A DNA stretch of 64,000 nucleotides from an uncultured Anaerolineales bacterium. Lineage in GTDB: Bacteria > Chloroflexota > Anaerolineae > Anaerolineales > UBA6663. Position 1 is the first letter of the stretch. The number at the start of each line of letters is the position of its first letter. This document shows positions 27,666-59,785 of this stretch, one piece after another. Location: positions 136,558-200,557 of the forward strand of contig CALFZO010000006.1 in the NCBI GenBank assembly GCA_937952305.1, in the 5' to 3' direction. The notes below the pieces were generated by a model. It saw nothing but the letters and a program-made list of their open reading frames with translations. It was not told where the DNA came from and searched no databases. Made by a program: the position numbers and the translations under genes.

Positions 27666-29083
<1,418 letters not shown>

Positions 29084-29156: not shown

Positions 29157-29271
29157 ATCTCGGACGATTTCGCCCCGAACCACCAACGCGGTCCAACGCA
29201 CGCCATCGCCGGTACCGGAGCCTGCGCCGTAGAGTCAGGCGGCACGCCACAACCTGAAGGGGGTTGCCGCC

Positions 29272-39200: not shown

Positions 39201-39619
39201 ACAACGGCAGCTTTGAGACCGGCTCGCTCGCCGGCTGGGAGGACTACGGCGGCATGTCGGTGCCGGTTTCGGCCGCCTACACCGGCGCCTTTGGCGCCTA
39301 CATGCCCAGCGACGGCCGCATCGACCAGGTCTTCGCCACCACCCCCGGCCAGGTCTACACCGTCACCGCCCGCCTGCGCATCGACCAACAGACCGTCGCG
39401 CCCACCTGGGGCGGCCTGCGCGTCCGCGTGGTCAATGCCACTTGGATGCAGCTCGCCACCAGCCCGCACTTCACACTCGCCAACTCGCCGGCCGGCACGT
39501 GGACGCTCGTCCAGTTCACGTTCACGGCCAACACCGCCACCACCCGCCTCAATTACGAAAACTTCAGCAACGGCGAATATCAGGCCTCGGCCGACGCGTT
39601 CAGCGTGACGGGGCCGTGA
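36290..39619 (+). CDS. Large secreted protein: CBM_4_9-like domain, beta-propeller-like core, P/T repeat linker, LamG/concanavalin-like domain, second CBM_4_9-like domain
   Basis: 1109 aa with a signal peptide. [20 protein letters not shown] and [20 protein letters not shown] open the two CBM-like domains. The centre is rich in WxxxxxV/Y propeller-like repeats. Confidence 0.75.
36557..36655 (+). repeat. Intragenic duplicated segment, copy 1 (N-terminal CBM-like domain)
   Basis: This 99-nt stretch differs from 39323-39421 at only 7 positions (aligned by eye). Confidence 0.8.
38198..38405 (+). repeat. About 3 copies of a 66-nt tandem repeat encoding a P/T-rich linker
   Basis: CCTTCGCA recurs at 38237, 38303 and 38369 (period 66). 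The protein repeat is PSQTP(L/P)[10 protein letters not shown]..(A/V)SAT. Confidence 0.8.
39323..39421 (+). repeat. Intragenic duplicated segment, copy 2 (C-terminal CBM-like domain)
   Basis: See copy 1. The protein reads [23 protein letters not shown] in both copies. Confidence 0.8.
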
Positions 39620-42850: not shown

Positions 42851-44011
42851 ATGCGTAATCTCATCTCGCAACGCGTTCAGTCCGTGCCGCCCTCGGGGAT
42901 TCGCAAGTACTTCGATATCGCCGCCACGATGAAGGACGTCATCTCGCTCGGCATCGGCGAACCGGACTTCGTCACGCCGCCGCCGATCCTGCAGGCCGGC
43001 ATCGAGGCGCTGCAGCGCGGCGAGACCCACTACACCTCCAACTCCGGGATCGCCGAGCTGCGCCGGGCGGTGGCCGCCAACCTGGAGCGCCTGTACGGCG
43101 TGAGCTATGACCCGGAAGCCGAACTGCTGATGACGGTCGGCGTCTCCGAGGCGCTCTACCTGGCCCTGACCGCCCTGCTCGACCCTGGCGACGAGGTCAT
43201 CGTCCCGCAGCCGTGCTTCGTGGCCTACACCGCCGAGGTGGCCTTCGCCGGCGGCGTGCCGGTCACCATCCCGACGCACGTTGAAGACAACTTCCAGGTG
43301 ACGGCCGACGCCATCGCGCGCAAGCTCACACCGCGCACCAAGGCGCTGCTGATCGGCTACCCCAACAACCCCACCGGCGCGGTGATGAGCCGCGAGAACC
43401 TGAGCCAGATCGCGGCGCTGGCCGAGCAGCACGACCTGATCGTGATCTCGGACGAGATCTACGACCGGCTGGTGTACGGCGGAGAGCACGTCTGCTTCGC
43501 GGCGCTGCCGGGCATGCGGGCGCGCACCATCACGCTGGGCGGCTTCTCCAAGAGCCACGCCATGACCGGCTGGCGCCTGGGCTACGCCGCCGGCCCGGCC
43601 GAGATCCTGGGCGCCATGCGCAAGGTCCACCAGTACACGATCATGTCCGCGCCGACCTCGGCACAGTTCGCGGCGCTGGAGGCCTTCAGCAGCGGCGAGC
43701 CCTTCGTCCAGCAGATGGTGGCCGAGTACGACCGCCGCCGCCAACTGCTCGTGAAGGGCCTCAACGCGCTCGGCCTGGACTGTTTCGAGCCCAAGGGCGC
43801 GTTCTACGCGTTCCCGTCGGTGGCCAAGAGCGGCCTGGACGATACCGCTTTCGCCGACACGCTGTTGGACGAGGAGCACGTGGCCGTGGTGCCCGGCTCG
43901 GCCTTCGGCGAGGGCGGCGCCGGCTTCGTGCGGCTGTCTTACGCCACGGCCTACGAGAAGATCGAGGAGGCGCTCAATCGCTTCGAACGCTTCATGCGCC
44001 GGCATGGCTGA
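42851..44011 (+). CDS. Class I/II pyridoxal-phosphate-dependent aminotransferase (aspartate/aromatic type)
   Basis: ATG at 42851 gives MRNLISQRVQSVPPSGIRKYFD... PLP-Lys motif GGFSKSHAMTGWRLGY and NNPTG are present. The listed ORF 42578-44011 has a junk N-terminal extension. Confidence 0.9.
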   Translation: MRNLISQRVQSVPPSGIRKYFDIAATMKDVISLGIGEPDFVTPPPILQAGIEALQRGETHYTSNSGIAELRRAVAANLERLYGVSYDPEAELLMTVGVSEALYLALTALLDPGDEVIVPQPCFVAYTAEVAFAGGVPVTIPTHVEDNFQVTADAIARKLTPRTKALLIGYPNNPTGAVMSRENLSQIAALAEQHDLIVISDEIYDRLVYGGEHVCFAALPGMRARTITLGGFSKSHAMTGWRLGYAAGPAEILGAMRKVHQYTIMSAPTSAQFAALEAFSSGEPFVQQMVAEYDRRRQLLVKGLNALGLDCFEPKGAFYAFPSVAKSGLDDTAFADTLLDEEHVAVVPGSAFGEGGAGFVRLSYATAYEKIEEALNRFERFMRRHG

Positions 44012-46120: not shown

Positions 46121-47410
46121 ATGCCGAAACCAGAGTTCAACCCCTTTGAGGTCGCCCAACGCCAGTTCGACGCCGTCGCCGACAAGCTCAAGCTGGACGA
46201 GCACGTGCGCGCCATCCTGCGCTGGCCGATGCGCGAGTACCGCTTCCAGATCCCGGTGCGCATGGACGACGGCTCGATCAACGTCTACTTCGGCTACCGT
46301 GTCCAGCACAACGACGCGCGCGGCCCGGCCAAGGGCGGCATCCGCTTCCACCCGAATGAGACCGTGGACACGGTCCGGGCGCTGGCGATGTGGATGACGT
46401 GGAAATGCGCGGCCGCCGATATCCCGCTCGGCGGCGGCAAGGGCGGCGTGGTGGTGGACCCGGCCGGCCTGTCGGTGGGCGAGAAGGAGCGCCTGTGCCG
46501 CGGCTTCATCGACGGCATCTGGAAGAACCTCGGCCCGCGCATCGACGTGCCCGCCCCGGATGTGGGCACCACCCCGCAGATGATGGGCTGGATGATGGAC
46601 GAGTACTCCAAACTCACCGGCCAGTATGTGCCGGGCGTGATCACGGGCAAGCCGGTGGGCAGCGGCGGCTCGCTCGGCCGTACGGAGGCCACCGGCTTCG
46701 GCGTCATCCACACCATCCGTGAGGCGCTGCGCCTGCTGCAGTTGGACGGCCGCACCTGCACGGCGTCGGTGCAGGGCTTCGGCAACGTCGGCCAGTATGC
46801 GGCCATCGGCTTCAGCGAGCTCCTGGGCGGCAAGGTGGTGGCCGTCTCGTGCTATGACCGGCACGACAAGACCGCGCACACCTTCTTCAAGCCGGACGGC
46901 CTGGACGCGCGCTTCCTGCAGTCCATCACCGACCAGTACGGCACGATCGACAAGGCCAAGGCCCAGGCGGCCGGCTGCGTGATCGAACCCGGCGACGCCT
47001 GGCTGTCTAAGGACGTGGACGTGCTCATCCCGGCCGCGCTGGAGGGCCAGCTCACCGCCGAGACGGCCGACCAGGTCAGCCGCCAGGTCAAGATCGTGGC
47101 GGAGGGCGCCAACGGCCCGACCACGCCCGAGGCCGACGCCATCTTCCAGAAGCGCGGGCTCTTCCTGATCCCGGACTTCCTGTGCAACGCCGGCGGCGTG
47201 ACGGTCTCGTACTTTGAAAGCGTGCAGAGCGACGCCAACTACTACTGGGAGCACGAGGCCGTGCTGCGCCGGCTGGATCAGAAGATGACGGCCGCCTTCC
47301 AGGGCGTCTCCCAGATGGCGCGCGAGCGCGACGTCTACATGCGCGACGCCGCCTACATGGTCGCGATCGACCGCGTGGTCAAGGCGATGGAATTGCGCGG
47401 CTGGGTGTAG
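46121..47410 (+). CDS. gdhA: Glutamate dehydrogenase (Glu/Leu/Phe/Val dehydrogenase family)
   Basis: 429 aa with GPAKGGIRFHP, the catalytic-Lys region PLGGGKGGV and an NAD(P) fold VQGFGNVG. SD AAGGAG precedes the start. Confidence 0.95.
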   Translation: MPKPEFNPFEVAQRQFDAVADKLKLDEHVRAILRWPMREYRFQIPVRMDDGSINVYFGYRVQHNDARGPAKGGIRFHPNETVDTVRALAMWMTWKCAAADIPLGGGKGGVVVDPAGLSVGEKERLCRGFIDGIWKNLGPRIDVPAPDVGTTPQMMGWMMDEYSKLTGQYVPGVITGKPVGSGGSLGRTEATGFGVIHTIREALRLLQLDGRTCTASVQGFGNVGQYAAIGFSELLGGKVVAVSCYDRHDKTAHTFFKPDGLDARFLQSITDQYGTIDKAKAQAAGCVIEPGDAWLSKDVDVLIPAALEGQLTAETADQVSRQVKIVAEGANGPTTPEADAIFQKRGLFLIPDFLCNAGGVTVSYFESVQSDANYYWEHEAVLRRLDQKMTAAFQGVSQMARERDVYMRDAAYMVAIDRVVKAMELRGWV

Positions 47411-47440
47411 CCGCCGAACCGGCCTCGCCGGATAACGCGC

Positions 47441-47476
47441 CGTGCCCGGCCAATGGCCGGGCACGGCTTTTTCTTT
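47441..47476 (+). terminator. Canonical rho-independent terminator after gdhA
   Basis: CGTGCCCGGCC (47441-47451) pairs with GGCCGGGCACG (47455-47465), an 11-bp perfect stem with a 3-nt loop, followed by GCTTTTTCTTT. Confidence 0.85.
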
Positions 47477-47494: not shown

Positions 47495-50029
47495 TCAGCC
47501 CGCGTCCGGGGCCAGCAGCGCCACCGCCTGGCTGCGCACATCGTCCAGGATCAGCTCAAGGTGGTGCCCCGGCCGAAAATCGGCGACGTCGATCAGGCGC
47601 AGGCAGGCGGCCACCGCCGGGCTGGCCGCCACCCGGTCCAGCAGGCGGTTGGGCGTGCCGGAGAAAAAATCCTGGTTGAAGACTGACTGCGGATCGTCCA
47701 GGCAGACGGCCACCGGGTAGATCTGCGCCTCCATCAGGTCCTGAAAGAAGTGCGTGCCCAGGGACGGCTCCGGCGCCGGCCCATGGCCGCGCCCGGCCAG
47801 CTCCACCAGGGCGCCGGCGTTGTAGATGTCGGCGTAGCTCACGTACACGCCCAGCTCCGGGTTGGTGGTGCCCCAGCGGCCCGGCCCCACCAGGATGTAC
47901 GCCTTCTCGCCCAAAGTAAGGTTGAGCTGCGCGATGGCCTTGGTCAGCTCGGCGCGCCCGGCCGCCGTGGGCAGGACCGAGTAGGCCTCGGGCGCCACGT
48001 AGACCACGTGGCGGATGTGCGGCAGGTAGCCTTGCGGCACCACAAAGCGCGTAGACAGGATGACGCGCTCCGGCGCCAGGTCGCGTGGCAGGGCGGCCAC
48101 GGCCGGCAGCGGCAGCGTGCTTTGCGGCCGGCATTGCAGCAGCGTCAGCGCCACCTGCGGCCGCCCGCCGTCGGCGTCCACCACGCGCACCGTGAACTCC
48201 AGGTCCACGGCCACGTGGTAATGCTCCTCCAACACCCGCAGCATCTGGGCCAGCAGGGCCGCGAAGGAGGTCCGGCGCACCAGGCCATCGAAGGTCAGCA
48301 CCAGGCCGGGGATGTCGCCGGCCAGCAGCGTGCCGCGCGGCGTCGTGAAGAAGCCGTCCGCCTCCAGTTGCGCCAGGTAGCGCAGCGCCGGGTAGTCCGG
48401 CGTCAGGACCTCGGCCACCGGCCGGGTGACCAGCGTGTTGGCCTCCAGGTCGATCAGGTCCACCCAGTGCTGTGAGTAGAAGCGCAGAGCCTCCGGCGAG
48501 TCGTCGGGCTGGAGGGTGGGGTGGCTGAGCGCGATCAGGTGCGGGTAGTCGTTGCCGACGCGGTCGACGGCGCGCGTCCCCAGCCCCCACACCAGCCGCA
48601 CAAAGCCGGCCTCGGGCCGGATGCGCGGCGACCAGCGATACAGGTTGCGGCTGAAGGCCACGCCCGCCCCGAACGGCAGGCAATAACGCCCAAAGCGCTC
48701 GCCCTGCACCACCTGGATCAGGATGGCCATGCGCTCGTCGTAGTCTTGCAGCTTCTTGCTGCGCCGGTAGAGCAGGGCCTCCGGCTTGAGCGTGCTGGCG
48801 TACGTTTGGGCAATGGCCTGCGTCAGCGCCCGCAGGTTCTCGTCCGGCGTCCCCTGGTTGGGACAGAAGAAGCTGTCGTACTTGCCGGCGAAAGAGGTGC
48901 CGAAGTTGTCCTCTAACTGGCTGGACGAGCGCACGATCAGCGGCTGCGCGCCCACGCGCGCCAGCATCGCCTCCAGCTCGCGCACGATCTCGGGCGGGAA
49001 CCCGCCGGCCTGGAACTCGGCCTGGATCTGCGGATACTCCGCCCGGATCTGGTCCTCCGGCTTGTATTTCTGATTGTTCCAGTGCATCAGCCCGTTCATG
49101 GCCATGAACAGGTAGATCAGGTCCGAGCCCAGATAGTAGGACTCGGGCACGCGCACACTGGCGCGCACCGCCGGGTCGGCCGCCGTCTGCAGGATGCGCG
49201 CCGCCAGCCGGAGGCCGGCCGCCTTGCCGCCGATGCGGCCTTGGCCGATCCGGTGCGCGTAGATCTCGGCCAGGTCCGCCAGGGTCAGCCACTCCTTGGC
49301 CACGTTGATGTAGGCGAGTTGATCGCTGATCAGGCGCCGGATCAGGGCGACCTTGATATCGCGCCGGCAGTGCGCCAGGAACTCCTGCTCGCGCGCCGGC
49401 AGCTTCTCGATCGCTTGGGCTTGCGCGAACAGCACGCTCTCCGGGATCAGCTCCGGGTCGGAAAAAGCCAGCAGGTCCTGGACCGCCTGGTCCAGGTCAC
49501 GCGGCGTGGCGCGCTCGCCGCCGGCCCGCTGCCAGATCGGCGCCGAGTGGATCACGCGGCGATGGATCACCAGGCCGTGGCCGCGGCATTGCTGGATGTC
49601 GTCGTCATCCACCATCTGCAGATCAAGCGTAAAGCAGGCCGGGCGTGCGTTGCGGCAGCCATAGCGGCGCCGGCGCTCCGCCAGCCCCGCTTCCAGCGTC
49701 TCCCCCAGGCCGTGCAGGGCCGCGCTCTTGCGTTCCACCCACGCGATCAGGTTGATGCCGCCGCGCCGGCTGCCATCGCCCAGGCCGGCCGCGCCGTCCT
49801 CGCCGGTGCTGCGGTAGATGGCCTTGACGGTCGGGTCCAGCCGGCCGACGAGCTCGCCGACCTGCCGGACCAGGCTGTCACACAGCGCGCCGCAGACGTC
49901 GCAGCGCCCCTCGCGCAGGGCTTGCTGCGCCTGCGGGGCGTTGCCGCCGAACTTGGCCGCCGCGCAATCGGCGACGGCCTGGTCCAGCAGTTGGTCGGCC
50001 AACGCGGGGTCTAGTTCCACGGCGGACAT
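47495..50029 (-). CDS. PPDK_N (PEP/pyruvate-binding, ATP-grasp) domain protein without phosphohistidine swivel or TIM domains, paralog A
   Basis: Motifs are IGGKAAGLRLAARIL and PLIVRSSSQLEDNFGTSFAGKYDSFF, and LLQCRPQS ends the ATP-grasp. The conserved C-terminal GPGRWGTTNPELGV...EPSLGTHFFQDL region is of unknown function. ATG 50029 (AAGGGTGGG upstream) is preferred over GTG 50038. Confidence 0.8.
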   Translation of the reverse strand: MSAVELDPALADQLLDQAVADCAAAKFGGNAPQAQQALREGRCDVCGALCDSLVRQVGELVGRLDPTVKAIYRSTGEDGAAGLGDGSRRGGINLIAWVERKSAALHGLGETLEAGLAERRRRYGCRNARPACFTLDLQMVDDDDIQQCRGHGLVIHRRVIHSAPIWQRAGGERATPRDLDQAVQDLLAFSDPELIPESVLFAQAQAIEKLPAREQEFLAHCRRDIKVALIRRLISDQLAYINVAKEWLTLADLAEIYAHRIGQGRIGGKAAGLRLAARILQTAADPAVRASVRVPESYYLGSDLIYLFMAMNGLMHWNNQKYKPEDQIRAEYPQIQAEFQAGGFPPEIVRELEAMLARVGAQPLIVRSSSQLEDNFGTSFAGKYDSFFCPNQGTPDENLRALTQAIAQTYASTLKPEALLYRRSKKLQDYDERMAILIQVVQGERFGRYCLPFGAGVAFSRNLYRWSPRIRPEAGFVRLVWGLGTRAVDRVGNDYPHLIALSHPTLQPDDSPEALRFYSQHWVDLIDLEANTLVTRPVAEVLTPDYPALRYLAQLEADGFFTTPRGTLLAGDIPGLVLTFDGLVRRTSFAALLAQMLRVLEEHYHVAVDLEFTVRVVDADGGRPQVALTLLQCRPQSTLPLPAVAALPRDLAPERVILSTRFVVPQGYLPHIRHVVYVAPEAYSVLPTAAGRAELTKAIAQLNLTLGEKAYILVGPGRWGTTNPELGVYVSYADIYNAGALVELAGRGHGPAPEPSLGTHFFQDLMEAQIYPVAVCLDDPQSVFNQDFFSGTPNRLLDRVAASPAVAACLRLIDVADFRPGHHLELILDDVRSQAVALLAPDAG

Positions 50030-50068
50030 GCCACCCACCCTTACGATGTCTGCGGCGCGGCCAGAGCG

Positions 50069-50096
50069 CGCTCAACTGAGCGCGCTCAGTTGAGCG
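50069..50096. repeat. 28-bp perfect palindrome spanning the stop codon of the GltS-FMN-like gene
   Basis: CGCTCAACTGAGCG (50069-50082) is immediately followed by CGCTCAGTTGAGCG (50083-50096). Confidence 0.9.
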
Positions 50097-51732
50097 ACGG
50101 CAGCGGCGGCTTGCGGCGCGTCTTGGGCCGCGCGCCGCGCGATCCGGACCGGCGCTCAGACGCGGTGTGCCCGTTGCCCTGGCGCCCCACCGGGGCCAGC
50201 GCCTCCCAGATGGGCAGCGGCCGCTCGTAGCCCGCCAGCTTGAGGCCGGTCAGCGCGGCCGTGTTCATGTCCAGCGCGCGCAGATCCTCGGTGGACAGGT
50301 CGGCGATGGCGCGATGGCCGGAGAGCATGGTCAGGATCTTGACCTCCTCCGCGCAGGCATGGATGAAGTTGGCCAGCTTCTGCCCGGCCGCCAGCGGGTC
50401 CAGGCGGGCGCGCAGTTCGGGCTTCTGGCTGGTGATGCCGTACGGGCAGTTGCCCTTGTGGCAGGCGTAGCAGGCGCGGCAGCCCATGGCGATCTCGGCC
50501 GCGCTGCCGAAACCAACCGCGTCGGCGCCCATGGCCAGGGCCTTGAAGGCGTCCAGGCCGTTGCGCAGGCCGCCCAGCGCGATCAGCTTGACCTGGCGGT
50601 GCACGCCATAGTCCTTCAGCGCCTGGACCGCCGGCGGGAGACAGGCGATGGTGGGGATGCCCACGCCCTGGGTGACGATGTCCGGCGAGCAGCCGGTGCC
50701 GCCCACCAGGCCGTCGATGCTGATGGCGTCGGCGCCGGCTTCGATGCAGGCGGCCACGTCCGCGTACGGGCGCGACGGCCCGAGCTTGAACAGGATCGGC
50801 ACGCGATAATCGGTGACGTCGCGCAGGAACGCCACCATGCGGCGCATGTCCTCCGGCGTCTGCACGTCATAGTAACGGCACGGGCTGAGCGCGTCCGAGC
50901 CCACCGGCACGCCGCGCACGCGTGAGACGGCCTCCGTGACCTTGGAGCCGAGCAGGTGGCCGCCCATGCCGGGTTTAGCGCCCTGGCCGATCTTGACCTC
51001 GACCGCGTCGCCGGCGTTGACGTAGTCCGCCGAGACGCCCCACCGGCCGGTGGACCACTGGATGACGAGGTAGCCGCCCGGGTCCCACTGCTTGTGGGCG
51101 CGGGCCTCATCGGCGTAACCGCGCGCCAGCCACGCCTCGGCCGGCACCAGGCCGCCCTCGCCGGTGTTGGTGGCGATGCCGGTCAGGGCCGCGCCGATGG
51201 CCAGGGCCTGCTTGGCCTCCTGGCTCAGCGCGCCGAACGACATGGCCGCCCACACAAACGGCAGCTTGAGCCGCAGCGGCTGGGAGCAAGTGTCCGCGCC
51301 GATGATCACTTCCAGGTCGCACTCCTCGCGGTACTTGTCGCGCGGCGCCGCGCTGGCGATCTGGCTGGGCACAACCGTGATCGTATCGAAGTTGGGCGTC
51401 GGGCCTTGCGTGCCAAAGCCGCGCAGCAGGTACTCGCCGGTCTGGGCTTTGGCGTGGACTTCTTCCACGGCGGCCAGCGTCCACGGGTAGCGGCTGAGAT
51501 ACTCCGACTCGGCCGGGTTGATGCGGATGGCGTCGGCCGGGCAGAACTCGGCGCAGATCCGGCAGCCCACGCAGGCGTTGTAGTTCTGGATGTGCATCGC
51601 GCCGCTGGCGAGGTCAAGCGCGTACACGCCGTGCGGGCAGACTTCGGCGCAGGTGGCGCACTTGCCCGGCATCTGCGCGTTGAGGCAGGCTTCTTGGTTA
51701 ACACTGATACAAAAGGCGCCTATGACAGCCAT
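50086..51732 (-). CDS. Glutamate-synthase FMN-domain (GltB domain 2-like) protein with N-terminal 2x[4Fe-4S] ferredoxin domain
   Basis: 548 aa with N-terminal CATCAEVCP and CVGCRICAEFCP. GltS motifs are TNTGEGG, KIGQGAKPGMGGHLLG, SIDGLVGGTGCSP, ALGGLRNGLDAFKALAMGADAVGFG and CRACYACHKGNCPYGITSQ. SD GAGGAGG precedes the start. Confidence 0.85.
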   Translation of the reverse strand: MAVIGAFCISVNQEACLNAQMPGKCATCAEVCPHGVYALDLASGAMHIQNYNACVGCRICAEFCPADAIRINPAESEYLSRYPWTLAAVEEVHAKAQTGEYLLRGFGTQGPTPNFDTITVVPSQIASAAPRDKYREECDLEVIIGADTCSQPLRLKLPFVWAAMSFGALSQEAKQALAIGAALTGIATNTGEGGLVPAEAWLARGYADEARAHKQWDPGGYLVIQWSTGRWGVSADYVNAGDAVEVKIGQGAKPGMGGHLLGSKVTEAVSRVRGVPVGSDALSPCRYYDVQTPEDMRRMVAFLRDVTDYRVPILFKLGPSRPYADVAACIEAGADAISIDGLVGGTGCSPDIVTQGVGIPTIACLPPAVQALKDYGVHRQVKLIALGGLRNGLDAFKALAMGADAVGFGSAAEIAMGCRACYACHKGNCPYGITSQKPELRARLDPLAAGQKLANFIHACAEEVKILTMLSGHRAIADLSTEDLRALDMNTAALTGLKLAGYERPLPIWEALAPVGRQGNGHTASERRSGSRGARPKTRRKPPLPSLN

Positions 51733-51742
51733 GGCGTCCTCC

Positions 51743-52393
51743 TCAGTTGTAGAACGGCTTGGGCGACGCGGCCACGACCTTCTGGAAGCGGGCCGGGTCG
51801 GCCGTCAGGCCGTATTGCTCGAAGTAGCCGCGCAGCTTGGCCAGGTCGGCCTCGGTCAGCGGCTCCACGCGCGTGTTGTGGCCGAGGCTCCGCCACGCGC
51901 CGCCGATGTAGACGGTGCCGCGGATCAGGTAGTTGGCGAAGTTGGCGCCGGCGTCCCCGACGATCACCAGATCACCCTTGAGCATGTAGGTGCCGGCCTC
52001 GTCGCCGACGTCGCCAGCCACCAGGATGACGGCGCCCTTGTTCATGGTCGCGGTGAAGTCGCCGGCGTCGCCGCGCACGACGACGGTGCCGCCATAGCAG
52101 TACTGGCCGGCGCCGTAGCCGGCGTCGCCGTCCACGATGACGGTGCCGGCCGTCATGTTGTCGGCCAGATACTGGCCGGCGTTGCGCTGCACGTGCAGGG
52201 TCGCCCCGGCGTTCAGCACGCCCAGGTAGTCGCCGGCGTCGCCCGCGATCTCCACCTGGCCCTGCTTCAACCCGGCCGCCAGGCCGTGCACGTGGGCGGC
52301 GTGCCTCACCGTCACCGGTTCTCCGTTCAGGGAAGCGCGCAGCGCCTGGTTGACGGCGCGCAGGTCTTTGTGTTTGGCGTCAATGGTCTTCAT
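51743..52393 (-). CDS. GXGXG-motif protein (GltB domain 3 / FwdC-like)
   Basis: 216 aa with repeated GDAG/GxGxG turns (IAGDAGDYLG, VDGDAGYGAG, VRGDAGDFTA, VAGDVGDEAG, IVGDAGANFA). SD GGGAGGTGG precedes the start. Confidence 0.85.
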   Translation of the reverse strand: MKTIDAKHKDLRAVNQALRASLNGEPVTVRHAAHVHGLAAGLKQGQVEIAGDAGDYLGVLNAGATLHVQRNAGQYLADNMTAGTVIVDGDAGYGAGQYCYGGTVVVRGDAGDFTATMNKGAVILVAGDVGDEAGTYMLKGDLVIVGDAGANFANYLIRGTVYIGGAWRSLGHNTRVEPLTEADLAKLRGYFEQYGLTADPARFQKVVAASPKPFYN

Positions 52394-52408: not shown

Positions 52409-53575
52409 TCAACAGCCCGTGCAGCCGTTGCGCGCCCGGGTTGGCGCGCCGGCTCGGCTGGGGGTGCGGTACAGGCGCGTGAACTGCTGGATGGCTTCAC
52501 CACGCTTAAGCGGGTCGGCCAGCGCATCCAGGGCCAGCACGCGCCAATCCTGGAAGGCCTCCGCCCGCGCGCGCCGGTCCTTGTCCCCGGCCGCCGCCGC
52601 CAGCGCGGCTTCGTCCACGTCCCGGCCGGTCTCCAGCAGCCCCATCTGCACCGCGTTGCGCACGAAGACGTCGCCGGCGCGGGTGCGGATAAGCAGGCTG
52701 GCCGCGTCCGCGTTGGCGTCCAGCGTCCCCAGCGCCAGGTCGGCGGATTCGCCCAGGTAGTCATCGCAGCTCGCGCAGCCGGCGCGCGTGTAGGCTTCGG
52801 CCTCCTCGCGCGGGAGGGTGCGGACGCTGCCGTCCCACAGGTGCGCGTTGAGCCAGCGCCGGTCCGGCGAGACCTCCAGCCGCTTCACCTGCTGGCGCGG
52901 CACGCCCAGGCGCTGCACCAACACGTCCTCGATCAACTCCGGGCGGTAGACGCCGGTGCAGAACAGCGCCACCGTCAGGCGCACGGCGTCCTGATACGGC
53001 TTCAGGCGCGGATTGGTGGAAGCCTTGAGCTTGCGGATGGCCTGCGCCGCGCAGGGCGGGCCGACGATGGCGATGTCCTTCAGGCCGCGCTCGAAGACGG
53101 CTTCATTCAGCGCATCCAGCACCGGCGCCCACAGATAGTGCAGGCCCACGCCCTCGGCGATCGCCTCCACCGTGGAGACGACCTCAGTTACGGGCCGCAG
53201 GTCCCACGGGTCCAGGTCCAGCCGGACGACGCCGTCCAGCAGGCCGGCGCTCAGCCCGGCCACCAGGAGGCTGCGCGCGACGTCGTTGGGCGTCCCGCCG
53301 CGCACCGGTCCGCGCGCGCGCGCCGAGACGGTCACCTGGGCCTCCAGCGGCGCCCAGCGCTCCAGGCGCGGGCAGACCGCTTCGCAGAAGTGCTGGCAGA
53401 ACGAGCAGCTGTCCAGCGGGCCTTTGGTGTAGCCGACGGTCTTCAGACGCGCCGCCAGCACGGGATGCTCGCCGCCGTTCCATTGCAGCACCTGCTTGGA
53501 GCAGGCCGCCACGCACAGGCCGCAGCCCGCGCAGCGCTCCAGCGCCCAGACCTCCTTCTCTAATCGTGTCGCCAT
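52409..53575 (-). CDS. FrhB/FdhB-family (coenzyme F420 hydrogenase/dehydrogenase beta-subunit-like) FeS flavoprotein
   Basis: ATG at 53575 with CAGGAGGTGAAAGC upstream. 388 aa with N-terminal Cys motifs CAGCGLCVAAC...CSFCQHFCEAVCP, then IAIVGPPCAAQAIRKL, LFCTGVY and CASCDDYLGESADLALG. The listed ORF 52409-53992 has a 139-codon Arg/Pro junk extension overlapping the upstream gene. Confidence 0.8.
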   Translation of the reverse strand: MATRLEKEVWALERCAGCGLCVAACSKQVLQWNGGEHPVLAARLKTVGYTKGPLDSCSFCQHFCEAVCPRLERWAPLEAQVTVSARARGPVRGGTPNDVARSLLVAGLSAGLLDGVVRLDLDPWDLRPVTEVVSTVEAIAEGVGLHYLWAPVLDALNEAVFERGLKDIAIVGPPCAAQAIRKLKASTNPRLKPYQDAVRLTVALFCTGVYRPELIEDVLVQRLGVPRQQVKRLEVSPDRRWLNAHLWDGSVRTLPREEAEAYTRAGCASCDDYLGESADLALGTLDANADAASLLIRTRAGDVFVRNAVQMGLLETGRDVDEAALAAAAGDKDRRARAEAFQDWRVLALDALADPLKRGEAIQQFTRLYRTPSRAGAPTRARNGCTGC

Positions 53576-53631: not shown

Positions 53632-55701
53632 TCACGGCCGCCGGTTGGGCGCACCCACCTCGGCCGCCAATTGGCTGGCGGCTGTGGCGAAGCCGCGCCC
53701 GTCGTCGCCGGACAGCGCCAGCCAGCGCAGCCGGCGCGGGTCGACGCCGCGTTCGGCCAGCTGGGCCTGCAACGCCTGGACGCGCTCGTGGGCGAAGCGG
53801 TTGCCCTGGCCGTGATGACATTCGCCGGCCGGGCAGGCCGCCACCAGCACGCCGGCGGCGCCGTTGAGGAACGCCCAGAGCACGTGGTCGCCGCTGAGGC
53901 GGGCCGAACAGCCCAGGCGGATCAGGCGGGTGCTGGCCGGGTACGGCCAGCCGCGCGCCCCGGCAATACCGGCGGCGGCGTCGCCGCTCCACTCGCAGCC
54001 GAAGACCACGACGCGCGGCGCTCCCTCGGCCGTCGCCAGGGCGGCCTCAATCTGCGCGAAGAGCGCGGCGTCCTCGGCGCCGGGCAGCGTCAGCGCGCGC
54101 ACCGGGCAGGCGGCCACGCAGCTGCCGCAGCCCGTGCAGCGGCGCCCGTCCACGCGCACGAGTGAGAGCGGCCCCGGCTGGGCGCTCAGGCTGAGCGCGG
54201 CCTGCGGGCAGGCCTGAACGCATTGCGCGCAGCCCGTGCATAGCGCCTCGTCCAAGGCGGGGATGGGCGCGTCCAATTGCAGGCGGCCCTGGCCGAGGTA
54301 GCGCAGGACGCGCGCGCCGGTGAGATAAGCCTGGAACTCGACTTCGGACACGCTGGCCGGCTGATGCAGGCCGCCCAGCACGAACAGGCCGTCGTCGGCG
54401 TAGCGGCCGGGGCGCAGGCGGAAGCGCCGCTCGATGAGAAAGCCGTCGGCGTCCCGCGGCAGGCCCAGCACGGCGGCCAGCCGGTCCGCGCCCGCCGCCG
54501 GCACCCACGGCAGCGCCAGCACCAATCGGTCGAAGGGCAGCTCGATCAGGTCGCGCGTGGCCGGCAGCGGCACGCTCACCGTCCGCGCGTCGATCACGGG
54601 CGGATGCGCCGGGTCGTAACGCACGAAGGCGACTCCGGCCGCCTGGGCGGCGGCCAGGTCTTGCCAGCCGGCCTCGGCGTCCTCGCCAAGCACCAGGTCC
54701 CGGAACAGCAGCGTCACCTCCGTCGCCGGGTTGAGCTCTTTCACGCGCGCGGCCTGGCGCAGACCGGCGCGGCAGCACACGCGTGAGCAGCGGCCGCCTG
54801 GCCCACGCTCGGCGCACAACTGGATGACGACGTGCTGAAACGGGCAGCCGCCCGCCTCGGCCAGGGCCGCCAGCTCCATCTCAAATTCGGCCTGGGTCCG
54901 GACGCGGGCGCGGGGATACCAGCGGGTGGCGCCCAGCGGCTGCGGCGCGGCGCCCAGCGCGGCCACGATCGCGCCGGCCGGCGTCACCGCCTGGACACCG
55001 GCCTGCTCCCAGGTCACCTGGTATTCGCCGGGCGCGCCGGCGACGGCGATGACCTGGGCGTTGAGCCGGGTCGTGATGAGCGGATGGGCGCGAACGGCCG
55101 CGATGCGGGCCGCGATCTGGTCCTGATCGGCGGCCTCGAAGCTGGGCGAGAGCCCTCCCAGGGCGCCGTCCGGGTCGATCACGGTGACGGGCGTCCCGCC
55201 CTCGGCCAGCGTCAGCGCCACGGTGAGGGCGCCCAGCCCGCCGCCGATGACGACGGCCGCCTTCGTCAGCGGATACGTGCGCGGCGCCGCCGGCGTCAGG
55301 GCCGCCAGACGCGCCGCGCCCATGGCGATCAGGTCGACGGCCTTGGCCTGCGCGGCCTCCGGCTCAGCGGCATGCACGCACGCGCATTGTTCGCGCACGT
55401 CCGCGATGGCGACGGCGTCGGCCGGCAAACCAGCCGCCTGGACCGTGGCGCGGAAGAGCGGCTCCACCAGGCGCGGCGCACAGGCGGCCACCAGCACGCG
55501 GTCCAGGTGCTCGGCCTGGATGGCGGCCTGCAGACGCGCGCGGCCATCCGGCCCGCAGGCGCAGGTCTCGCACGTCACGTGGGCGACGCCAGGCAGATCA
55601 GCGGCGGCGCGCGCCAGCCTCTCCGGCTCCAGCGGCCTCGGCCGGCCGAGCGTGCCGCCGCAATCACAGACGACGATCCCCAGGCGCGGTGAGTCGCTCA
55701 T
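53632..55701 (-). CDS. HdrA-like FAD/FeS protein with C-terminally fused MvhD (methyl-viologen-reducing hydrogenase delta) domain
   Basis: The ATG at 55701 overlaps the upstream stop (ATGA). 689 aa. The HdrA N-domain pattern reads GIVVCDCGG...VLVAACAPRLVEPLF...IADVREQCACVH. FAD fold AAVVIGGGLGALTVALTLAEGG, CSRVCC and the ferredoxin pair CTGCAQCVQACP / CTGCGSCVAACP follow. The MvhD pattern is VVVFGCEWSGD...RLGCSARL...VLVAACPAGECHHGQGN. Confidence 0.8.
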   Translation of the reverse strand: MSDSPRLGIVVCDCGGTLGRPRPLEPERLARAAADLPGVAHVTCETCACGPDGRARLQAAIQAEHLDRVLVAACAPRLVEPLFRATVQAAGLPADAVAIADVREQCACVHAAEPEAAQAKAVDLIAMGAARLAALTPAAPRTYPLTKAAVVIGGGLGALTVALTLAEGGTPVTVIDPDGALGGLSPSFEAADQDQIAARIAAVRAHPLITTRLNAQVIAVAGAPGEYQVTWEQAGVQAVTPAGAIVAALGAAPQPLGATRWYPRARVRTQAEFEMELAALAEAGGCPFQHVVIQLCAERGPGGRCSRVCCRAGLRQAARVKELNPATEVTLLFRDLVLGEDAEAGWQDLAAAQAAGVAFVRYDPAHPPVIDARTVSVPLPATRDLIELPFDRLVLALPWVPAAGADRLAAVLGLPRDADGFLIERRFRLRPGRYADDGLFVLGGLHQPASVSEVEFQAYLTGARVLRYLGQGRLQLDAPIPALDEALCTGCAQCVQACPQAALSLSAQPGPLSLVRVDGRRCTGCGSCVAACPVRALTLPGAEDAALFAQIEAALATAEGAPRVVVFGCEWSGDAAAGIAGARGWPYPASTRLIRLGCSARLSGDHVLWAFLNGAAGVLVAACPAGECHHGQGNRFAHERVQALQAQLAERGVDPRRLRWLALSGDDGRGFATAASQLAAEVGAPNRRP

Positions 55702-56435
55702 CGGGCCTTCTCTTTCTGCGCGGCCGAGGCCGCCGCCGGAGCCAACACCGCCGGCACATCCGCCATGCCGCGCGGCGTCAGGTCCTGGTCGCCGCAGGCC
55801 TGGCAATACTGGCGCGCCTCGTCGGCGCCGGTGTGGAGGCTGCGGAAGCCGGCGACATCGGCCAGGGTCAGGTGGCCGGTAGGGCAGATCAGCACGCACG
55901 TGCCGCAGCCGATACAGGCCGAGGCCGCCGGCTCATCGAAGGGCGGGCTGACCCGTTTGGCCAGGCCGCGCCGGGTGAGGCTGATGGCGCCGACGCCCAC
56001 GATCTCGCGGCAGGCGCGCACGCACAGGCCGCACACCACGCAGGTGTCGGCCTCCGGGCGCCGGTAGCGCGGCGCCTCCACGCCCAAGCTGCGCGCCAGC
56101 GCCTGGATCTCGGGCGAGGTGTATGCACCGGCGAGCAGGAGTTCGGCCGTGATCCGGCGGCTGCGCTGCACCAGGTCTGAGTGCGTGCACACCACCAACC
56201 CCGGCTCACACGGATACGCGCAGGCGGCGGCCAGGCGCGCCGGGCGCGGGCGCCGATCGCCCGGCGGCGGCGGCGCGCTCACCTCCACCACGCACAGCCG
56301 GCAGGCGCCGTAGGGCTTCAACGCCGGATGGTGGCACAGGGTCGGCACGGCGATGCCATGCTCACGGCACGCTTCCAGGAGCGTGCGCCCCTCGGCCACC
56401 TCCACGCTGCGGTCGTCGATCGTCAACTGGATCAT
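55698..56435 (-). CDS. NuoG/HydA N-terminal-like ferredoxin: [2Fe-2S] plus 2x[4Fe-4S], no catalytic domain
   Basis: 245 aa. Fer2_4-like MIQLTIDDRSVEVAEGRTLLEACREHGIAVPTLCHHP...GACRLCVVEV is followed by CVVCGLCVRAC and CIGCGTCVLICP. Confidence 0.8.
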   Translation of the reverse strand: MIQLTIDDRSVEVAEGRTLLEACREHGIAVPTLCHHPALKPYGACRLCVVEVSAPPPPGDRRPRPARLAAACAYPCEPGLVVCTHSDLVQRSRRITAELLLAGAYTSPEIQALARSLGVEAPRYRRPEADTCVVCGLCVRACREIVGVGAISLTRRGLAKRVSPPFDEPAASACIGCGTCVLICPTGHLTLADVAGFRSLHTGADEARQYCQACGDQDLTPRGMADVPAVLAPAAASAAQKEKAR

Positions 56436-56444
56436 GGCGGGGCC

Positions 56445-58346
56445 TCAATTGACCGTGACCGCGTCGAACTTGCACACGCTCTGGCACAGGCCGCAGCGCG
56501 TGCAGACCGCCGGGTCGATGGTGTGGATCTGCTGCTTAGCGCCGTGGATGGCGCCGGCCGGGCAGTTGCGCAGGCAGACCTGACAACCCGAGCACCGCTC
56601 CGGCTGGATGGCGTACGTGATCAGGCCTTTGCAGACCTTGGCCGGGCAGCGCTTGTGCAAGATGTGCGCGTCATACTCGGCGCGGAAGTAACGCAGGGTC
56701 GAGAGGACCGGATTAGGCGCGGTCTGGCCCAGGCCGCACAGCGACGAGCGCTTGATCATCTCGCCCAGCTCCAGCAGGTAATCCACGTCGCCGGGCTGCC
56801 CGTGGCCGGCGCAGATGCGCTCCAGCGTCGCCAGCATGGCCTGTGTGCCCACGCGGCAGGGCACGCACTTGCCGCACGACTCCTCCTGCGTGAACTGCAT
56901 GAAGTAGCGGGCGAAGTCCACCATGCAGGTGTCCTCGTCCGCCACCACCAGGCCGCCCGAGCCGACGATGGCGCCGAGCGCGGTCAGCGATTCATAGTCG
57001 ATGGACGTGTCCAGGTGCTCGGCCGGGATACAGCCGCCGGACGGCCCGCCGATCTGGGCGGCCTTGAAGGCCTTGCCGCCGGGGATGCCGCCGCCGATGT
57101 CGAAGATCAGGCGGCGCAGCGAGATGCCCAGCGGCACCTCCACCAGGCCGGTGTTGTTGATCTTGCCGACCACCGAGAAGATCAGCGTGCCCTTGCTGGT
57201 GGGCGTGCCCAACTGCGCGTACCAGTCCGCGCCGTTGGCCAGGATGAGCGGCACCGCCGCCCAACTCTTGACATTGTTGATGTTGGTCGGTTTGCCCCAC
57301 AGGCCGGCCTCGGCCGGATAAGGCGGGCGCGGGCGCGGCTCGCCCACGCGGCCTTCGATGGACGCCATCAGCGCGGTCTCCTCGCCGCAGACAAAAGCGC
57401 CGCTGCCCAGCCGCACGCTGACCCGAAAATCGAAGCCGGAGCCCAGGATGTTCTCGCCCAACAGGCCGCGCGCCTCGGCCTGGGCGATGGCGGCGCGCAG
57501 GTGCTTGACGGCCAGCGGGTATTCGTTGCGGATGTAGACGAAGCCGCGCCGCGCCCCGATGGCGTACGCGCCGATCAGCATCCCCTCCAGCACGCGGTGG
57601 GGGTTGCCCTCCATGATCGAGCGGTCCATGTAGGCGCCCGGGTCGCCCTCGTCCGCGTTGCAGATCACGTACTTCACGTCGCCGGGCTGACGCCGGCACA
57701 GGTCCCACTTCTGCCCGGTGGGGAAGCCGGCGCCGCCGCGCCCGCGCAGCCCGGAGGCCTTGACTTCGGCGATGACGGCCGCGGGCGTCAGGGCCAGCGC
57801 CTTGGCCAGCGCGGCGTAGCCGCCGGCGGCCACGTAGTCGGCCAGGCTGAGCGGATCGAGCGTGCCGTTCAGGTCCAGCACCAGGCGGTGCTGATGTTTA
57901 TAGAACGGGACCTCGGTCTCATACGGCAGCCGGGCGCCGGACTGCGGCTCGGTGTACAGCAGGCGGTCGAGCACGCGGCCGCCGTCCACAGTGGCCGCCG
58001 CGATCTCGGCGGCATCCTCCGGCTTGACGCGCGTGTACATCAAGCGCTGCGGATGGAGCACCACCAGCGGCCCGCGCTCACAGAACCCGTGGCAGCCGGT
58101 GACGCGCACCGGGCGCCCGTCGCCGCGCGCCGCCAGCTCACGCTGCAGCGCCTGGCAGACGCGCTCGCTGCCGTAGACGCGGCAGCCGGTGCCGCCGCAG
58201 ACCGTGATGGCCGGCTGGTTGGGCTGATCCGCGGCGGTCAGGGCCGCACGCCAATCCGCCAGATCGGCAAGCTGGTGCAGCTGTGGATCGCGGCCATTGG
58301 CCGGCGCTGGCGCGGCTTCCAGCGGGGAGGGCGGGGTCTTAAGCAT
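56445..58346 (-). CDS. NuoF/HydB-like NADH-binding FMN FeS flavoprotein with extra N-terminal thioredoxin-like [2Fe-2S] and C-terminal 2x[4Fe-4S] domains
   Basis: 633 aa with GLRGRGGAGFPTGQKW, NADEGDPGAYMDR and ESCGKCVPCRVG. The N-terminus carries VCGGTGC...CHGFCERGP. The C-terminus carries CSGCQVCLRNCP and CTRCGLCQSVC. Confidence 0.9.
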   Translation of the reverse strand: MLKTPPSPLEAAPAPANGRDPQLHQLADLADWRAALTAADQPNQPAITVCGGTGCRVYGSERVCQALQRELAARGDGRPVRVTGCHGFCERGPLVVLHPQRLMYTRVKPEDAAEIAAATVDGGRVLDRLLYTEPQSGARLPYETEVPFYKHQHRLVLDLNGTLDPLSLADYVAAGGYAALAKALALTPAAVIAEVKASGLRGRGGAGFPTGQKWDLCRRQPGDVKYVICNADEGDPGAYMDRSIMEGNPHRVLEGMLIGAYAIGARRGFVYIRNEYPLAVKHLRAAIAQAEARGLLGENILGSGFDFRVSVRLGSGAFVCGEETALMASIEGRVGEPRPRPPYPAEAGLWGKPTNINNVKSWAAVPLILANGADWYAQLGTPTSKGTLIFSVVGKINNTGLVEVPLGISLRRLIFDIGGGIPGGKAFKAAQIGGPSGGCIPAEHLDTSIDYESLTALGAIVGSGGLVVADEDTCMVDFARYFMQFTQEESCGKCVPCRVGTQAMLATLERICAGHGQPGDVDYLLELGEMIKRSSLCGLGQTAPNPVLSTLRYFRAEYDAHILHKRCPAKVCKGLITYAIQPERCSGCQVCLRNCPAGAIHGAKQQIHTIDPAVCTRCGLCQSVCKFDAVTVN

Positions 58347-58884
58347 GCTGCGCCTCCGCCGCCTGGCGCGTCAGGCGCTTCCAGAGCATTTCGGCCTTGG
58401 GCGCCGTCATCTGCCCGGAGTACTCGCCGTCGGCGACGACGATGGGGCCGAGCGCACAGGCGCCCAGGCAGTTGACGGTCTCGAGCGTGAACTCGCGGTC
58501 GCGCGTGGTGGCGCCGGGGCTGACCCCCAGCCGCGTCGCCAGCCGCTCCAGCACCCGCGGGCTGCCGCGCACGTGGCAGGCCGTGCCCATGCACACCTGC
58601 AGGCAGTGCCGGCCTTTTGGCTTGAGGCTGAAGGCGTTATAGAACGTGGCGACGGCGTAGACGTCGGCGAGCGGGAGGTGGAAGCGCTCGCCGGCCAGGA
58701 TCAGGGCCGCGCGCGGCAGGTAGCGGCAGCGCGCCTGAACCGCCTCCAGCGCGGCGATGACCGAGCCTTCGCCGCGCGCTTCCTGGTCGATGAGCTGGTA
58801 GAGGTCGCCGACCGGCAATAGCATAGCGGGCTGCTCCAGGGGCGACAGCGCCGCGCCGTCGACGCGTCCGGCCAGCCGGTTCAA
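58339..58884 (-). CDS. NuoE/HydC-like thioredoxin-fold [2Fe-2S] protein
   Basis: VATFYNAFSLKPKGRHCLQVCMGTACHVRG...VNCLGACALGP. The start is ambiguous (TTG 58884 or ATG 58824). The stop overlaps the NuoF-like start by 8 nt. Confidence 0.85.
   Translation of the reverse strand: MNRLAGRVDGAALSPLEQPAMLLPVGDLYQLIDQEARGEGSVIAALEAVQARCRYLPRAALILAGERFHLPLADVYAVATFYNAFSLKPKGRHCLQVCMGTACHVRGSPRVLERLATRLGVSPGATTRDREFTLETVNCLGACALGPIVVADGEYSGQMTAPKAEMLWKRLTRQAAEAQHA

Positions 58885-59077: not shown

Positions 59078-59785
<708 letters not shown>

Follow-up and report, generated by a model that had tools for sequence, protein, structure and literature searches.

Glutamate synthase (GOGAT, GltS) belongs to textbook nitrogen metabolism and, to our knowledge, all of its characterised forms use glutamine. 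The enzyme considered here is encoded in a 64-kb stretch of the genome of an uncultured Anaerolineales bacterium (hereafter the window; G+C content, 68-75%), and comprises a flavin mononucleotide (FMN)-binding synthase subunit and a separate GXGXG β-helix subunit. It belongs to the GltS family, lacks a glutaminase in cis, is coupled to a novel electron module and is conserved over two domains of life. Compared with canonical NADPH-GOGAT and ferredoxin-dependent GOGAT (Fd-GOGAT), it preserves a homologous FMN domain (E values from 1e-43 to 7e-46), the same 2-oxoglutarate (2-OG)-site residues and a homologous GXGXG domain, but displays important differences: (i) the class-II glutamine amidotransferase (GATase) domain, the central domain and GltD are missing; (ii) four cysteines, not three, occupy the Fe-S motif; (iii) E975 and Q978 are replaced by Met and His; and (iv) the genes are split. 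The nearest solved structures are Synechocystis Fd-GltS (PDB code, 1LLW; E 7e-46) and the α subunits of Azospirillum and other NADPH-GltS.

Classical split GOGAT, represented by reference operons from Pseudodesulfovibrio tunisiensis and Geobacter hydrogenophilus (L071 and L072), resembles the window enzyme in having separate FMN and GXGXG genes and an N-terminal 2x[4Fe-4S] domain on the FMN subunit; its GltB2 is 34% identical over the full length and has in common the four-cysteine motif and a hydrophobic residue and His in place of E975 and Q978. These operons, in the order GltB2 (ferredoxin and FMN domains), ferredoxin, Pyr_redox_2 reductase, GATase_2 and GXGXG, encode a GATase_2 protein, a small ferredoxin and an NAD(P)H reductase, whereas the window operon has no GATase and, as donor module, NuoE/NuoF/NuoG'-like subunits together with HdrA-MvhD and an FrhB-like protein. 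From the GltB1/B2/B3 trio that marks split GOGAT, the B2-like and B3-like members are present in the window operon and B1 is absent.

FrhB-type subunits hold the F420 site of Frh, Fsr and Fpo, and HdrA-MvhD is the bifurcating module of methanogen heterodisulfide reductase (Hdr). The putative F420-dependent glutamate synthases (FGltS I/II) of methanogens resemble the window operon in that a subunit of the FrhB/FpoF type is encoded beside the GltS subunits (PMC3448663 and PMC3087415, in the sections drawn on here), and the FrhB-like protein of the window, with an N-terminal 2x[4Fe-4S] domain and an FrhB core, shows the architecture that the same section of PMC3448663 gives for FGltS(I)-α and FpoF. 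On the other hand, FGltS is in those sections proposed to be glutamine-dependent, and the enzyme itself 'remains to be proven' (PMC3087415); the window operon, by contrast, belongs to bacterial hosts, invariably includes HdrA-MvhD and comes with no GATase in the loci searched. The sections drawn on of PMC3448663, PMC3087415 and PMC9012536 do not name HdrA or Bfu modules as parts of glutamate synthase. In the last of these, Chadwick et al. describe 'FrhB10' paralogs of anaerobic methanotrophic archaea (ANME), clustered with glutamate synthase subunits, as 'potentially a third group' (PMC9012536); the archaeal clusters reported below, including that of a 'Methanosarcinales' metagenome-assembled genome (MAG), are probably this third group.

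Bfu (HydABC-type) enzymes share with the window operon NuoE and NuoF subunits with extra domains and a truncated NuoG/HydA N-terminus, matching the BfuCBA core, and differ in the catalytic module, here of the GltS type; their listed third substrates are H2O2, pyruvate, CO, aldehydes, aryl-CoA, NADP+, F420, formate and quinones, with no 2-oxoglutarate or glutamate (PMC9304861). Compared to HdrABC-MvhAGD and HdrA2B2C2, the HdrA domains are kept, MvhD is fused as in HdrA2 and the acceptor potential is close to that of CoM-S-S-CoB (-140 mV); nevertheless, the bacterial operon has neither HdrB/C (CCG) nor the inserted ferredoxin domain, K409 is R, and in place of a disulfide the high-potential acceptor would be 2-iminoglutarate, bound at an FMN site. 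N-methylglutamate synthase (MgsABC/GlxBCD) is marked by a GATase-like MgsA subunit, absent in cis here, alongside GXGXG (MgsB) and FMN (MgsC) subunits, and the 'MgsC' label on some relatives of the window protein is an automatic name given by JGI. In the literature searched, no GltS that is ammonia-dependent or linked to Hdr or Bfu has been characterised, and a survey from 2025 on the HdrA clusters of methane-metabolising archaea records glutamate synthase only by way of a GltD insertion.

Operon architecture and conservation

The operon comprises seven genes and probably an eighth, for a PPDK_N-like protein. The seven run from 58824 to 50086, all on the minus strand and packed with overlaps or gaps of 4-56 nt, in the order NuoE-like, NuoF-like, NuoG-N-terminal-like (NuoG'), HdrA-MvhD, FrhB-like, GXGXG and GltS-FMN (Table 1). 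An earlier note on this DNA was concerned with the last two genes, which it read as the synthase half of a GltS with neither amidotransferase nor GltD. Its anatomy holds: both open reading frames (ORFs) lie on the minus strand at the positions it gave; the motifs GEGG, QGAKPGMGGHLLG, GGTGCSP and CRACYACHKGNCPYG are all found in the translation of the FMN subunit; the N-terminal 2x[4Fe-4S] ferredoxin that it described is recovered by Pfam at residues 24-70, ahead of the Glu_synthase domain PF01645 (residues 142-472, E 4e-105); and the GXGXG domain occupies a gene of its own. Two hallmarks of the GltS family are present, namely the PF01645 synthase domain with its 2-OG-site residues and, as a separate gene, the GXGXG domain. 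The basic C-terminal tail on which the note remarked exists in the translation but is no family feature, since positions beyond ~510 are gapped in 70-99% of 120 relatives; a functional role for it was rejected, the tail being unconserved and lineage-specific. The note's interpretation thus stood for the anatomy and for the absences in cis, and fell short in that five upstream operon genes lay outside its span; these supply the electron-donor function that seemed to be missing. With the operon in view, the question is no longer one of an orphan half-enzyme but of the catalytic part of a complex with several flavins that possibly bifurcates.

None of the operon's subunits reaches a curated NCBIfam cutoff, and the nearest models are as follows. 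The GXGXG subunit, equivalent to the C-terminal domain of GltB and to FwdC, matches FwdC and the GltB C-terminus; the NuoF-type subunit scores 484 bits with nuoF_fam; the NuoG'-like subunit matches HoxU and the N-terminus of FeFe-hydrogenase A6; HdrA-MvhD is closest to HdrA2; and the FrhB-like subunit is closest to FrhB/FpoF. The NuoF-type subunit displays two additions to its core, an N-terminal [2Fe-2S] domain (2Fe-2S_thioredx, 46-117) and a C-terminal 2x[4Fe-4S] domain (Fer4 x2, 580-631), whereas HdrA-MvhD comprises the HdrA N-terminal domain, a TrxR-like FAD domain, a C-terminal ferredoxin domain and MvhD at 559-682.

The 548-aa FMN subunit recurs with an identical sequence on bioreactor-sludge metagenome contigs, where the gene order and the call of the NuoE-type gene are also the same. 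Its family is 72-89% identical over many MAGs of Anaerolineae/Chloroflexota and the isolate Longilinea arvoryzae KOME-1; the operon is carried by L. arvoryzae (NZ_DF967972), Anaerolineaceae bin52 (CP070708.1) and OY969578.1. Synteny was sampled in 59 genome loci, 39 of which hold enough upstream sequence to be informative, and all seven genes occur in the same order in 37 of these 39 Anaerolineae/Chloroflexota loci. Conservation is highest in the FMN subunit (median identity of 80.5%, versus 44.5% for HdrA), and the GXGXG gene adjoins the FMN-subunit gene in every locus examined. The next gene on the same strand encodes a PPDK_N-like protein in 20 loci and glutamate dehydrogenase in 10; all-against-all clustering of the ORFs of the synteny loci revealed no further conserved neighbour family.

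In archaea, a four-gene core comprising HdrA (~1150 aa, including MvhD), FrhB, GXGXG and GltS-FMN is seen in Bathyarchaeia, Methanomassiliicoccales, Promethearchaeota (Asgard) and Geothermarchaeales. The FMN proteins of three Bathyarchaeota loci (L053, L054, L056) and one 'Methanosarcinales' locus (L055) are 51-53% identical to that of the window. With the L053 protein as query, further archaeal relatives were found, at 64% identity to it on a JGI metagenome contig (P0134, L067) and at 56-57% in Promethearchaeota (P0148), Geothermarchaeales (P0162), an NCBI MAG (P0168) and Methanomassiliicoccales (P0182). A further locus labelled 'Methanosarcinales archaeon' (L017) encodes proteins 83% identical to those of Anaerolineae and is therefore probably a binning contaminant. 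HdrC and HdrB accompany the archaeal core in L053, L067 and L068 and are absent from L065 (Methanomassiliicoccales), the similar L069 and L066 (Promethearchaeota). The archaeal neighbours include an aminotransferase (L065, L069) and AsnC-type regulators (L067, L068), and the Asgard cluster (L066; MAG GCA_048939725.1, 261-12346) has an ELFV-type glutamate dehydrogenase-like gene on either side. When 1.84 billion representatives are searched, the clade as a whole forms one 50%-identity cluster at 634 bits, and with the next best protein at only 442 bits the clade is discrete.

The input module differs across this range (NuoEF and NuoG' in most bacteria, a GltD-type module in few, HdrCB or nothing extra in archaea), while the GXGXG and FMN pair is constant. 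GltD-like genes within the cluster are confined to four related loci: three encode NuoF fusion proteins of ~1060-1117 aa with an added GltD-like (NAD(P)H/FAD/2x[4Fe-4S]) domain (L037:2066-5248, L044:2342-5695, L042:6027-9305), and in the fourth a GltD-like protein of 567 aa (L028:3502-5205) stands in place of NuoE/NuoF. The fusions and the lone GltD-like protein resemble Nfn-Bfu/Stn-type modules set ahead of the HdrA-FrhB-GltS core. L042 also appears to be without HdrA/FrhB, a feature to which we attach no meaning since a Fer2 N-terminus and the GXGXG gene lie there in overlapping frames, as expected from a deletion or misassembly.

Proposed electron path and energy coupling

Our preferred, though tentative, reading of these sequences is that the operon encodes a glutamine-independent (NH3-using) 2-OG/glutamate oxidoreductase, which would form the catalytic part of an Hdr/Bfu complex with several flavins that works with NAD(H), ferredoxin and possibly F420. 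Judging from gene order and domains, the seven proteins very probably form one complex, a seven-subunit Fe-S flavoprotein of which the GltS FMN site would be one terminus. There the FMN subunit would interconvert 2-OG + NH3 + 2e- and L-glutamate at the canonical synthase site, the ammonia being taken free and not derived from glutamine. Electrons would travel to or from this FMN via the subunit's own three [4Fe-4S] clusters, and the partners in the path would be the FrhB-like FAD subunit, HdrA-MvhD and the HydABC/Bfu-type NuoE-NuoF-NuoG' module, predicted to bind NAD(H) and, perhaps, also ferredoxin via the C-terminal ferredoxin domain of NuoF. The Hdr/Bfu modules and FrhB would thus take the place of GltD as electron supply. 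The FrhB-like subunit itself may either provide an F420(H2) site or serve GltS as an electron adaptor; its best PDB matches are β subunits of F420-reducing hydrogenase (E 1e-25), well above ferredoxin-dependent HCAR (9e-5). In addition, an LLM-class luciferase-like oxidoreductase encoded in the window at 23133-24122 (+) scores 437 bits with the F420-dependent family TIGR03617 (cutoff, 278), which suggests that the organism makes or uses F420.

The 2-OG + NH4+/glutamate couple lies at about -140 mV. This equals the potential of the heterodisulfide (-140 mV, beside -320/-280 for NADH, -360 for F420 and -420/-500 for ferredoxin; PMC9304861, Table 1), so that reductive amination could be the exergonic branch of a bifurcation. 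The reaction would read 2 NADH (or F420H2) + Fd(ox) + 2-OG + NH4+ -> Glu + Fd(red), and the reverse direction could operate in peptide fermenters such as Anaerolineae, Bathyarchaeia and Asgard archaea, where reduced ferredoxin would drive glutamate oxidation with NADH formation, unfavourable by itself. Ferredoxin coupling or bifurcation is, from the domains present, a possibility that we hold a little more loosely than the preferred reading as a whole. It is doubtful that HdrA/MvhD-FrhB-GXGXG-GltS(FMN), extended by the Bfu NADH module in Anaerolineae, constitutes a new bifurcating/confurcating class in which NH3-dependent reductive amination of 2-OG replaces heterodisulfide reduction, and by which Anaerolineae, Bathyarchaeia and Asgard archaea run glutamate oxidation to NADH/F420H2 driven by reduced ferredoxin.

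The hallmark domain set of Bfu (BfuB, BfuC, BfuA), as described in PMC9304861, is found by Pfam in the NuoF/NuoE/NuoG'-like subunits, and the extra cluster domains of BfuB are described as specific to bifurcating Bfu enzymes and absent from non-bifurcating homologues (PMC9304861). A precedent for the combination is the benzoyl-CoA reductase BamB-I, which joins NuoEFG-like with HdrA- and MvhD-like subunits (PMC9430772; PMC9304861). On the Hdr side, the domains of the HdrA module (N-terminal, TrxR-FAD and C-terminal ferredoxin domains, with the MvhD partner) are all present. Regarding E356 and K409, the signature of the bifurcating FAD in HdrA (PMC9430772), the Glu is probably conserved at position 272/276 of the HdrA-like protein.

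Several points weigh against the preferred reading. The position equivalent to E1013 of Fd-GltS, a residue that in Fd-GltS links the synthase and glutaminase sites, stays acidic (D/E) in the relatives; a GATase subunit may be encoded in trans, the searches in cis having covered the window and related loci; and the adjacency of glutamate dehydrogenase could reflect mere shared nitrogen regulation. As regards coupling, (i) the HdrA-like protein aligns with HdrA of the PDB (E 8e-65) over residues 3-232 and 304-556 only, residues 233-303 standing against ~245-405 of HdrA, where the inserted domain that binds ferredoxin in methanogen Hdr is missing (PMC9430772); (ii) the equivalent of K409 is R315, and among 46 orthologs the position is R in 29, D in 6, K in 4 and Q in 3; (iii) Bfu, HdrA and a possible F420 site provide more entry points than a simple stoichiometry needs; and (iv) energy conservation does not usually rely on a biosynthetic reaction to take up the electrons.

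Given the missing inserted domain and the change of K409 to Arg, bifurcation is plausible rather than indicated, and a linear, non-bifurcating enzyme that converts NH3 and 2-OG into glutamate with NADH/F420H2 is a serious, if unlikely, rival. HdrA, MvhD and the Fe-S clusters would then be wires, as befits the existence of HdrA homologues that do not bifurcate (PMC9430772), and ferredoxin would be no substrate. F420H2 could be a plain donor via FrhB in an organism with a TIGR03617 enzyme, and the few loci with a GltD-like NAD(P)H module, either joined to NuoEF or in its place, recall ordinary NADPH-GOGAT. Nevertheless, a linear path from NADH to FMN would need far less than four flavin sites and over ten predicted Fe-S clusters, the pairing of HdrA with FrhB is kept across domains of life, and NuoF with extra cluster domains is said to be specific to Bfu (PMC9304861).

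Absence of a glutaminase in cis and the synthase site

The earlier note had reported neither a class-II amidotransferase nor a GltD in the window, and both absences are borne out. Pfam finds no GATase_2, GATase_6 or GATase_7 domain and no GltD among the plausible ORFs of the 64 kb, and the amidotransferase and central domains of E. coli GltB, used as tblastn queries, give zero matches in any frame, so that the class-II (Ntn, Cys1) GATase hallmark of GOGAT as well as the GltD and GltB central-domain hallmarks of bacterial NADPH-GOGAT are absent from the window. The E. coli amidotransferase queries likewise have zero matches in 69 related loci, and two split-type amidotransferase subunits (tblastn, E <= 0.1) find nothing in the window or in ~1.07 Mb from these loci, which leaves the GATase hallmark absent from the neighbourhoods too. 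Glutamine-handling genes in the window are limited to gatCAB. A Pyr_redox_2 gene at 27650-29083 (+) was considered as a hidden GltD and rejected, as its Rossmann part alone matches, far below cutoff and with no Fer4_20; it encodes an FprA/adrenodoxin-reductase-like flavoprotein without an Fe-S domain, outside the operon. A Bathyarchaeia upstream ORF of ~254 aa was rejected as a cryptic GATase, having no Pfam or NCBIfam match and no similarity to the GATase queries.

The nearest known type keeps its glutaminase in cis (GATase_2 proteins of 365-373 aa, with the Cys after a short propeptide, in the reference operons), whereas the clade of the window never does so in the bacterial and archaeal loci searched. 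This argues for glutamine independence, and it seems likely, on such comparative grounds, that the enzyme operates without a GATase. PF01645 proteins without a GATase are also common in other architectures, including GXGXG-FMN-GltD fusions and FMN-rubrerythrin proteins.

An ordinary glutamine-dependent split GOGAT, in which a GltB1-type subunit from elsewhere in the genome docks onto the FMN and GXGXG proteins while the upstream genes take over from GltD by supplying NADH/F420H2, is less likely still than the linear enzyme. The 34% identity to classical GltB2, with a common ferredoxin and FMN architecture, four-cysteine motif and hydrophobic-His pair, is consistent with it, as are the acidic residue retained at the E1013 position and the putative F420-dependent GOGATs with an FrhB-like fourth subunit, for which the sections drawn on of PMC3448663 and PMC3087415 propose glutamine as substrate in methanogens. 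Against this stand the absence of a GATase gene near the cluster in ~70 loci from two domains of life, compared with its presence inside the classical operon, the additional absence of the GltS central domain, and the ammonia tunnel, which would need a tight stoichiometric partner that is normally co-encoded.

The synthase site itself points to 2-OG and glutamate. E903, Q969, K972 and R992 of 1LLW, which we take to be the residues around 2-oxoglutarate/2-iminoglutarate and FMN N5 in the Fd-GltS and Azospirillum GltS structures, align with E192, Q250, K253 and R273 of the FMN subunit and are invariant in 120 bacterial and archaeal relatives, so the comparison with solved GltS that the earlier note had suggested finds these four residues kept. 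The glutamate/glutamine neighbourhood described there is likewise present, comprising gdhA, an aminotransferase gene (42851-44011) and gatCAB. Together, the invariant 2-OG-site residues and the recurrent glutamate dehydrogenase and aminotransferase neighbours support 2-oxoglutarate/glutamate as the substrate pair, and glutamate/2-OG is probably the chemistry of the enzyme.

Other positions of the site separate lineages. The canonical E975 and Q978 are an invariant Met (Met256) and His (His259) in the 120 relatives, and the Fe-S motif C418-x2-C-x2-C-x4-C429-P retains the three cysteines of the GOGAT [3Fe-4S] motif (C-x5-C-x4-C) and adds a fourth, all four being invariant, which predicts a [4Fe-4S] cluster. 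Canonical long GltB has E/Q and three cysteines, and the features of the window protein at these positions are shared by the classical split GltB2 (I-H, four cysteines) and most non-canonical members. Met256/His259 and the fourth cysteine were considered as an adaptation to free NH4+ or a marker of GATase-less enzymes and rejected, because the classical split GltB2, with a GATase in its operon, has I-H and four cysteines; they mark the 'split' lineage and not the loss of glutaminase. A single full-length protein carries this signature (P0321), and it is uninformative, its GATase_2 region having no N-terminal Cys.

It is very unlikely that the pair acts on another 2-oxo acid or imine or on a non-ammonia amine (compare N-methylglutamate synthase), or serves mainly as a redox module: GATase-less PF01645 proteins of uncharacterised role are many (with fusions to GltD, rubrerythrin and GXGXG), some members bear the automatic JGI name 'methylamine-glutamate N-methyltransferase subunit C', E975/Q978 are changed to Met/His and no NCBIfam equivalog is reached at cutoff, but the residues that hold and protonate 2-OG/2-iminoglutarate are invariant, the Met/His change also occurs in a bona fide split GOGAT subunit, glutamate dehydrogenase and aminotransferase genes recur beside the cluster, and N-methylglutamate synthase requires a GATase-like MgsA, with none in cis. 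Of the three options left by the earlier note, the ammonia-dependent glutamate-forming enzyme is thus the best supported and the one acting on a different substrate the least.

If the preferred reading is true, ammonia could be assimilated (or glutamate broken down) by a third route in addition to glutamate dehydrogenase and GS-GOGAT, and with its bifurcation-type modules the complex would put a new substrate couple on the short list of flavin-based bifurcating reactions. As a new bifurcating/confurcating class it would also tie central nitrogen and amino-acid metabolism directly to the ferredoxin pool in bacteria and archaea. The hosts, namely Bathyarchaeia, Methanomassiliicoccales, Asgard archaea and the Anaerolineae that live in digesters and sediments, are abundant but poorly understood anaerobes. 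Their energy and amino-acid metabolism is currently reconstructed from annotation only, and the labels given to these genes are 'glutamate synthase-related', 'alpha-hydroxy-acid oxidizing protein' and 'MgsC'. As Longilinea arvoryzae KOME-1 is cultured and has the full operon, the hypothesis is directly testable.

Neighbouring genes and minor observations

Table 1. Features of the operon and its surroundings, in operon order followed by flanking elements (positions in the window; domains from Pfam).
Feature	Position	Strand	Description
NuoE/HydC (BfuC)-type [2Fe-2S] subunit	58339..58824	-	161 aa; 2Fe-2S_thioredx E 1e-41; operon gene 1
NuoF/HydB (BfuB)-type NADH-FMN subunit	56445..58346	-	633 aa; Complex1_51K, NADH_4Fe-4S
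NuoG-N-terminal/HoxU/BfuA-like Fe-S subunit	55698..56435	-	245 aa; [2Fe-2S] + 2x[4Fe-4S]; Fer2_4 + Fer4
HdrA-like flavoprotein fused to MvhD	53632..55701	-	689 aa; Pyr_redox_2, Fer4, FlpD
FrhB/FpoF-type subunit	52409..53575	-	388 aa; N-terminal 2x[4Fe-4S] + FAD/[4Fe-4S] FrhB core; FrhB_FdhB_N/C + Fer4
GXGXG β-helix subunit	51743..52393	-	216 aa; PF01493 E 2e-16
GltS synthase (FMN) subunit	50086..51732	-	548 aa; N-terminal 2x[4Fe-4S] ferredoxin domain, then PF01645 TIM-barrel
PPDK_N-only (ATP-grasp) protein, paralog A	47495..50038	-	847 aa; PPDK_N only
Bidirectional terminator-like hairpin	47439..47467		13 bp stem, 12 GC; between operon end and convergent gdhA
Glutamate dehydrogenase gdhA	46121..47410	+	convergent with operon
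OmpR-type response regulator	59078-59785	-	directly upstream of operon, co-directional
GAF-HisKA sensor kinase	59805-61121	-	directly upstream of operon, co-directional

The sensor kinase and response regulator, kept upstream of the operon in ~26 loci, are likely its dedicated regulator. In six loci (L010, L014, L015, L017, L019 and L058, first 2.7 kb) an aminotransferase gene and gatB lie directly upstream of nuoE and replace this pair; in the same Anaerolineales sub-group a glutamate dehydrogenase gene follows the GltS gene, so the gene set of the window is kept together in a rearranged form.

Downstream, the gap from the GltS gene to the PPDK_N paralog A is 47 nt with no terminator inside, and the sole strong hairpin comes after the PPDK_N gene, which is probably co-transcribed with the operon. 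A second PPDK_N-only paralog lies at 61337-63676 (+), so that the operon with its regulator genes sits between the two; a phosphohistidine swivel domain is recognisable in neither. In paralog A, the first ~170 aa, with the motif R-x-G-x-C-x-V-C, match no Pfam or NCBIfam family and occur elsewhere as a stand-alone gene after the GltS gene (L037:11589-12107, L042:11515-12081, L044:11496-12083, L070:9562-10119); they are also related to a family of 186-aa ORFs present in 12 loci. The complex may have in the PPDK_N-like protein or the stand-alone domain a partner with an accessory or regulatory role.

Among the archaeal clusters, the ~254-aa protein is common to Bathyarchaeia and, as a homologous ORF of 255 aa, Asgard archaea (L053:1802-2566, L054:1944-2702, L066:10106-10873; 30% identity, E 1e-31) and has no counterpart in the bacterial operon. 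L066 displays a second FrhB paralog after the GltS gene, with malic enzyme and acetyl-CoA hydrolase/transferase genes nearby, and L067 and L068 have small Zn-ribbon-like ORFs (92-105 aa) ahead of the cluster.

Elsewhere in the window, the genes at 12449-13816 (+) and ~13830-15660 (+) encode tandem paralogs. Each starts with a ComEA-like helix-hairpin-helix domain, continues through a long linker rich in Pro, Ala and Thr that includes a membrane segment, and ends in a domain of ~170 aa (…YLFG…C.GR.R…), similar in the two, that has no Pfam match. Two very large secreted proteins with Thr/Pro-rich linkers are encoded at 29233-32730 (+) and 36260-39619 (+), one containing three lamin-tail (LTD) domains and the other a near-identical CBM_4_9-like domain at each end.

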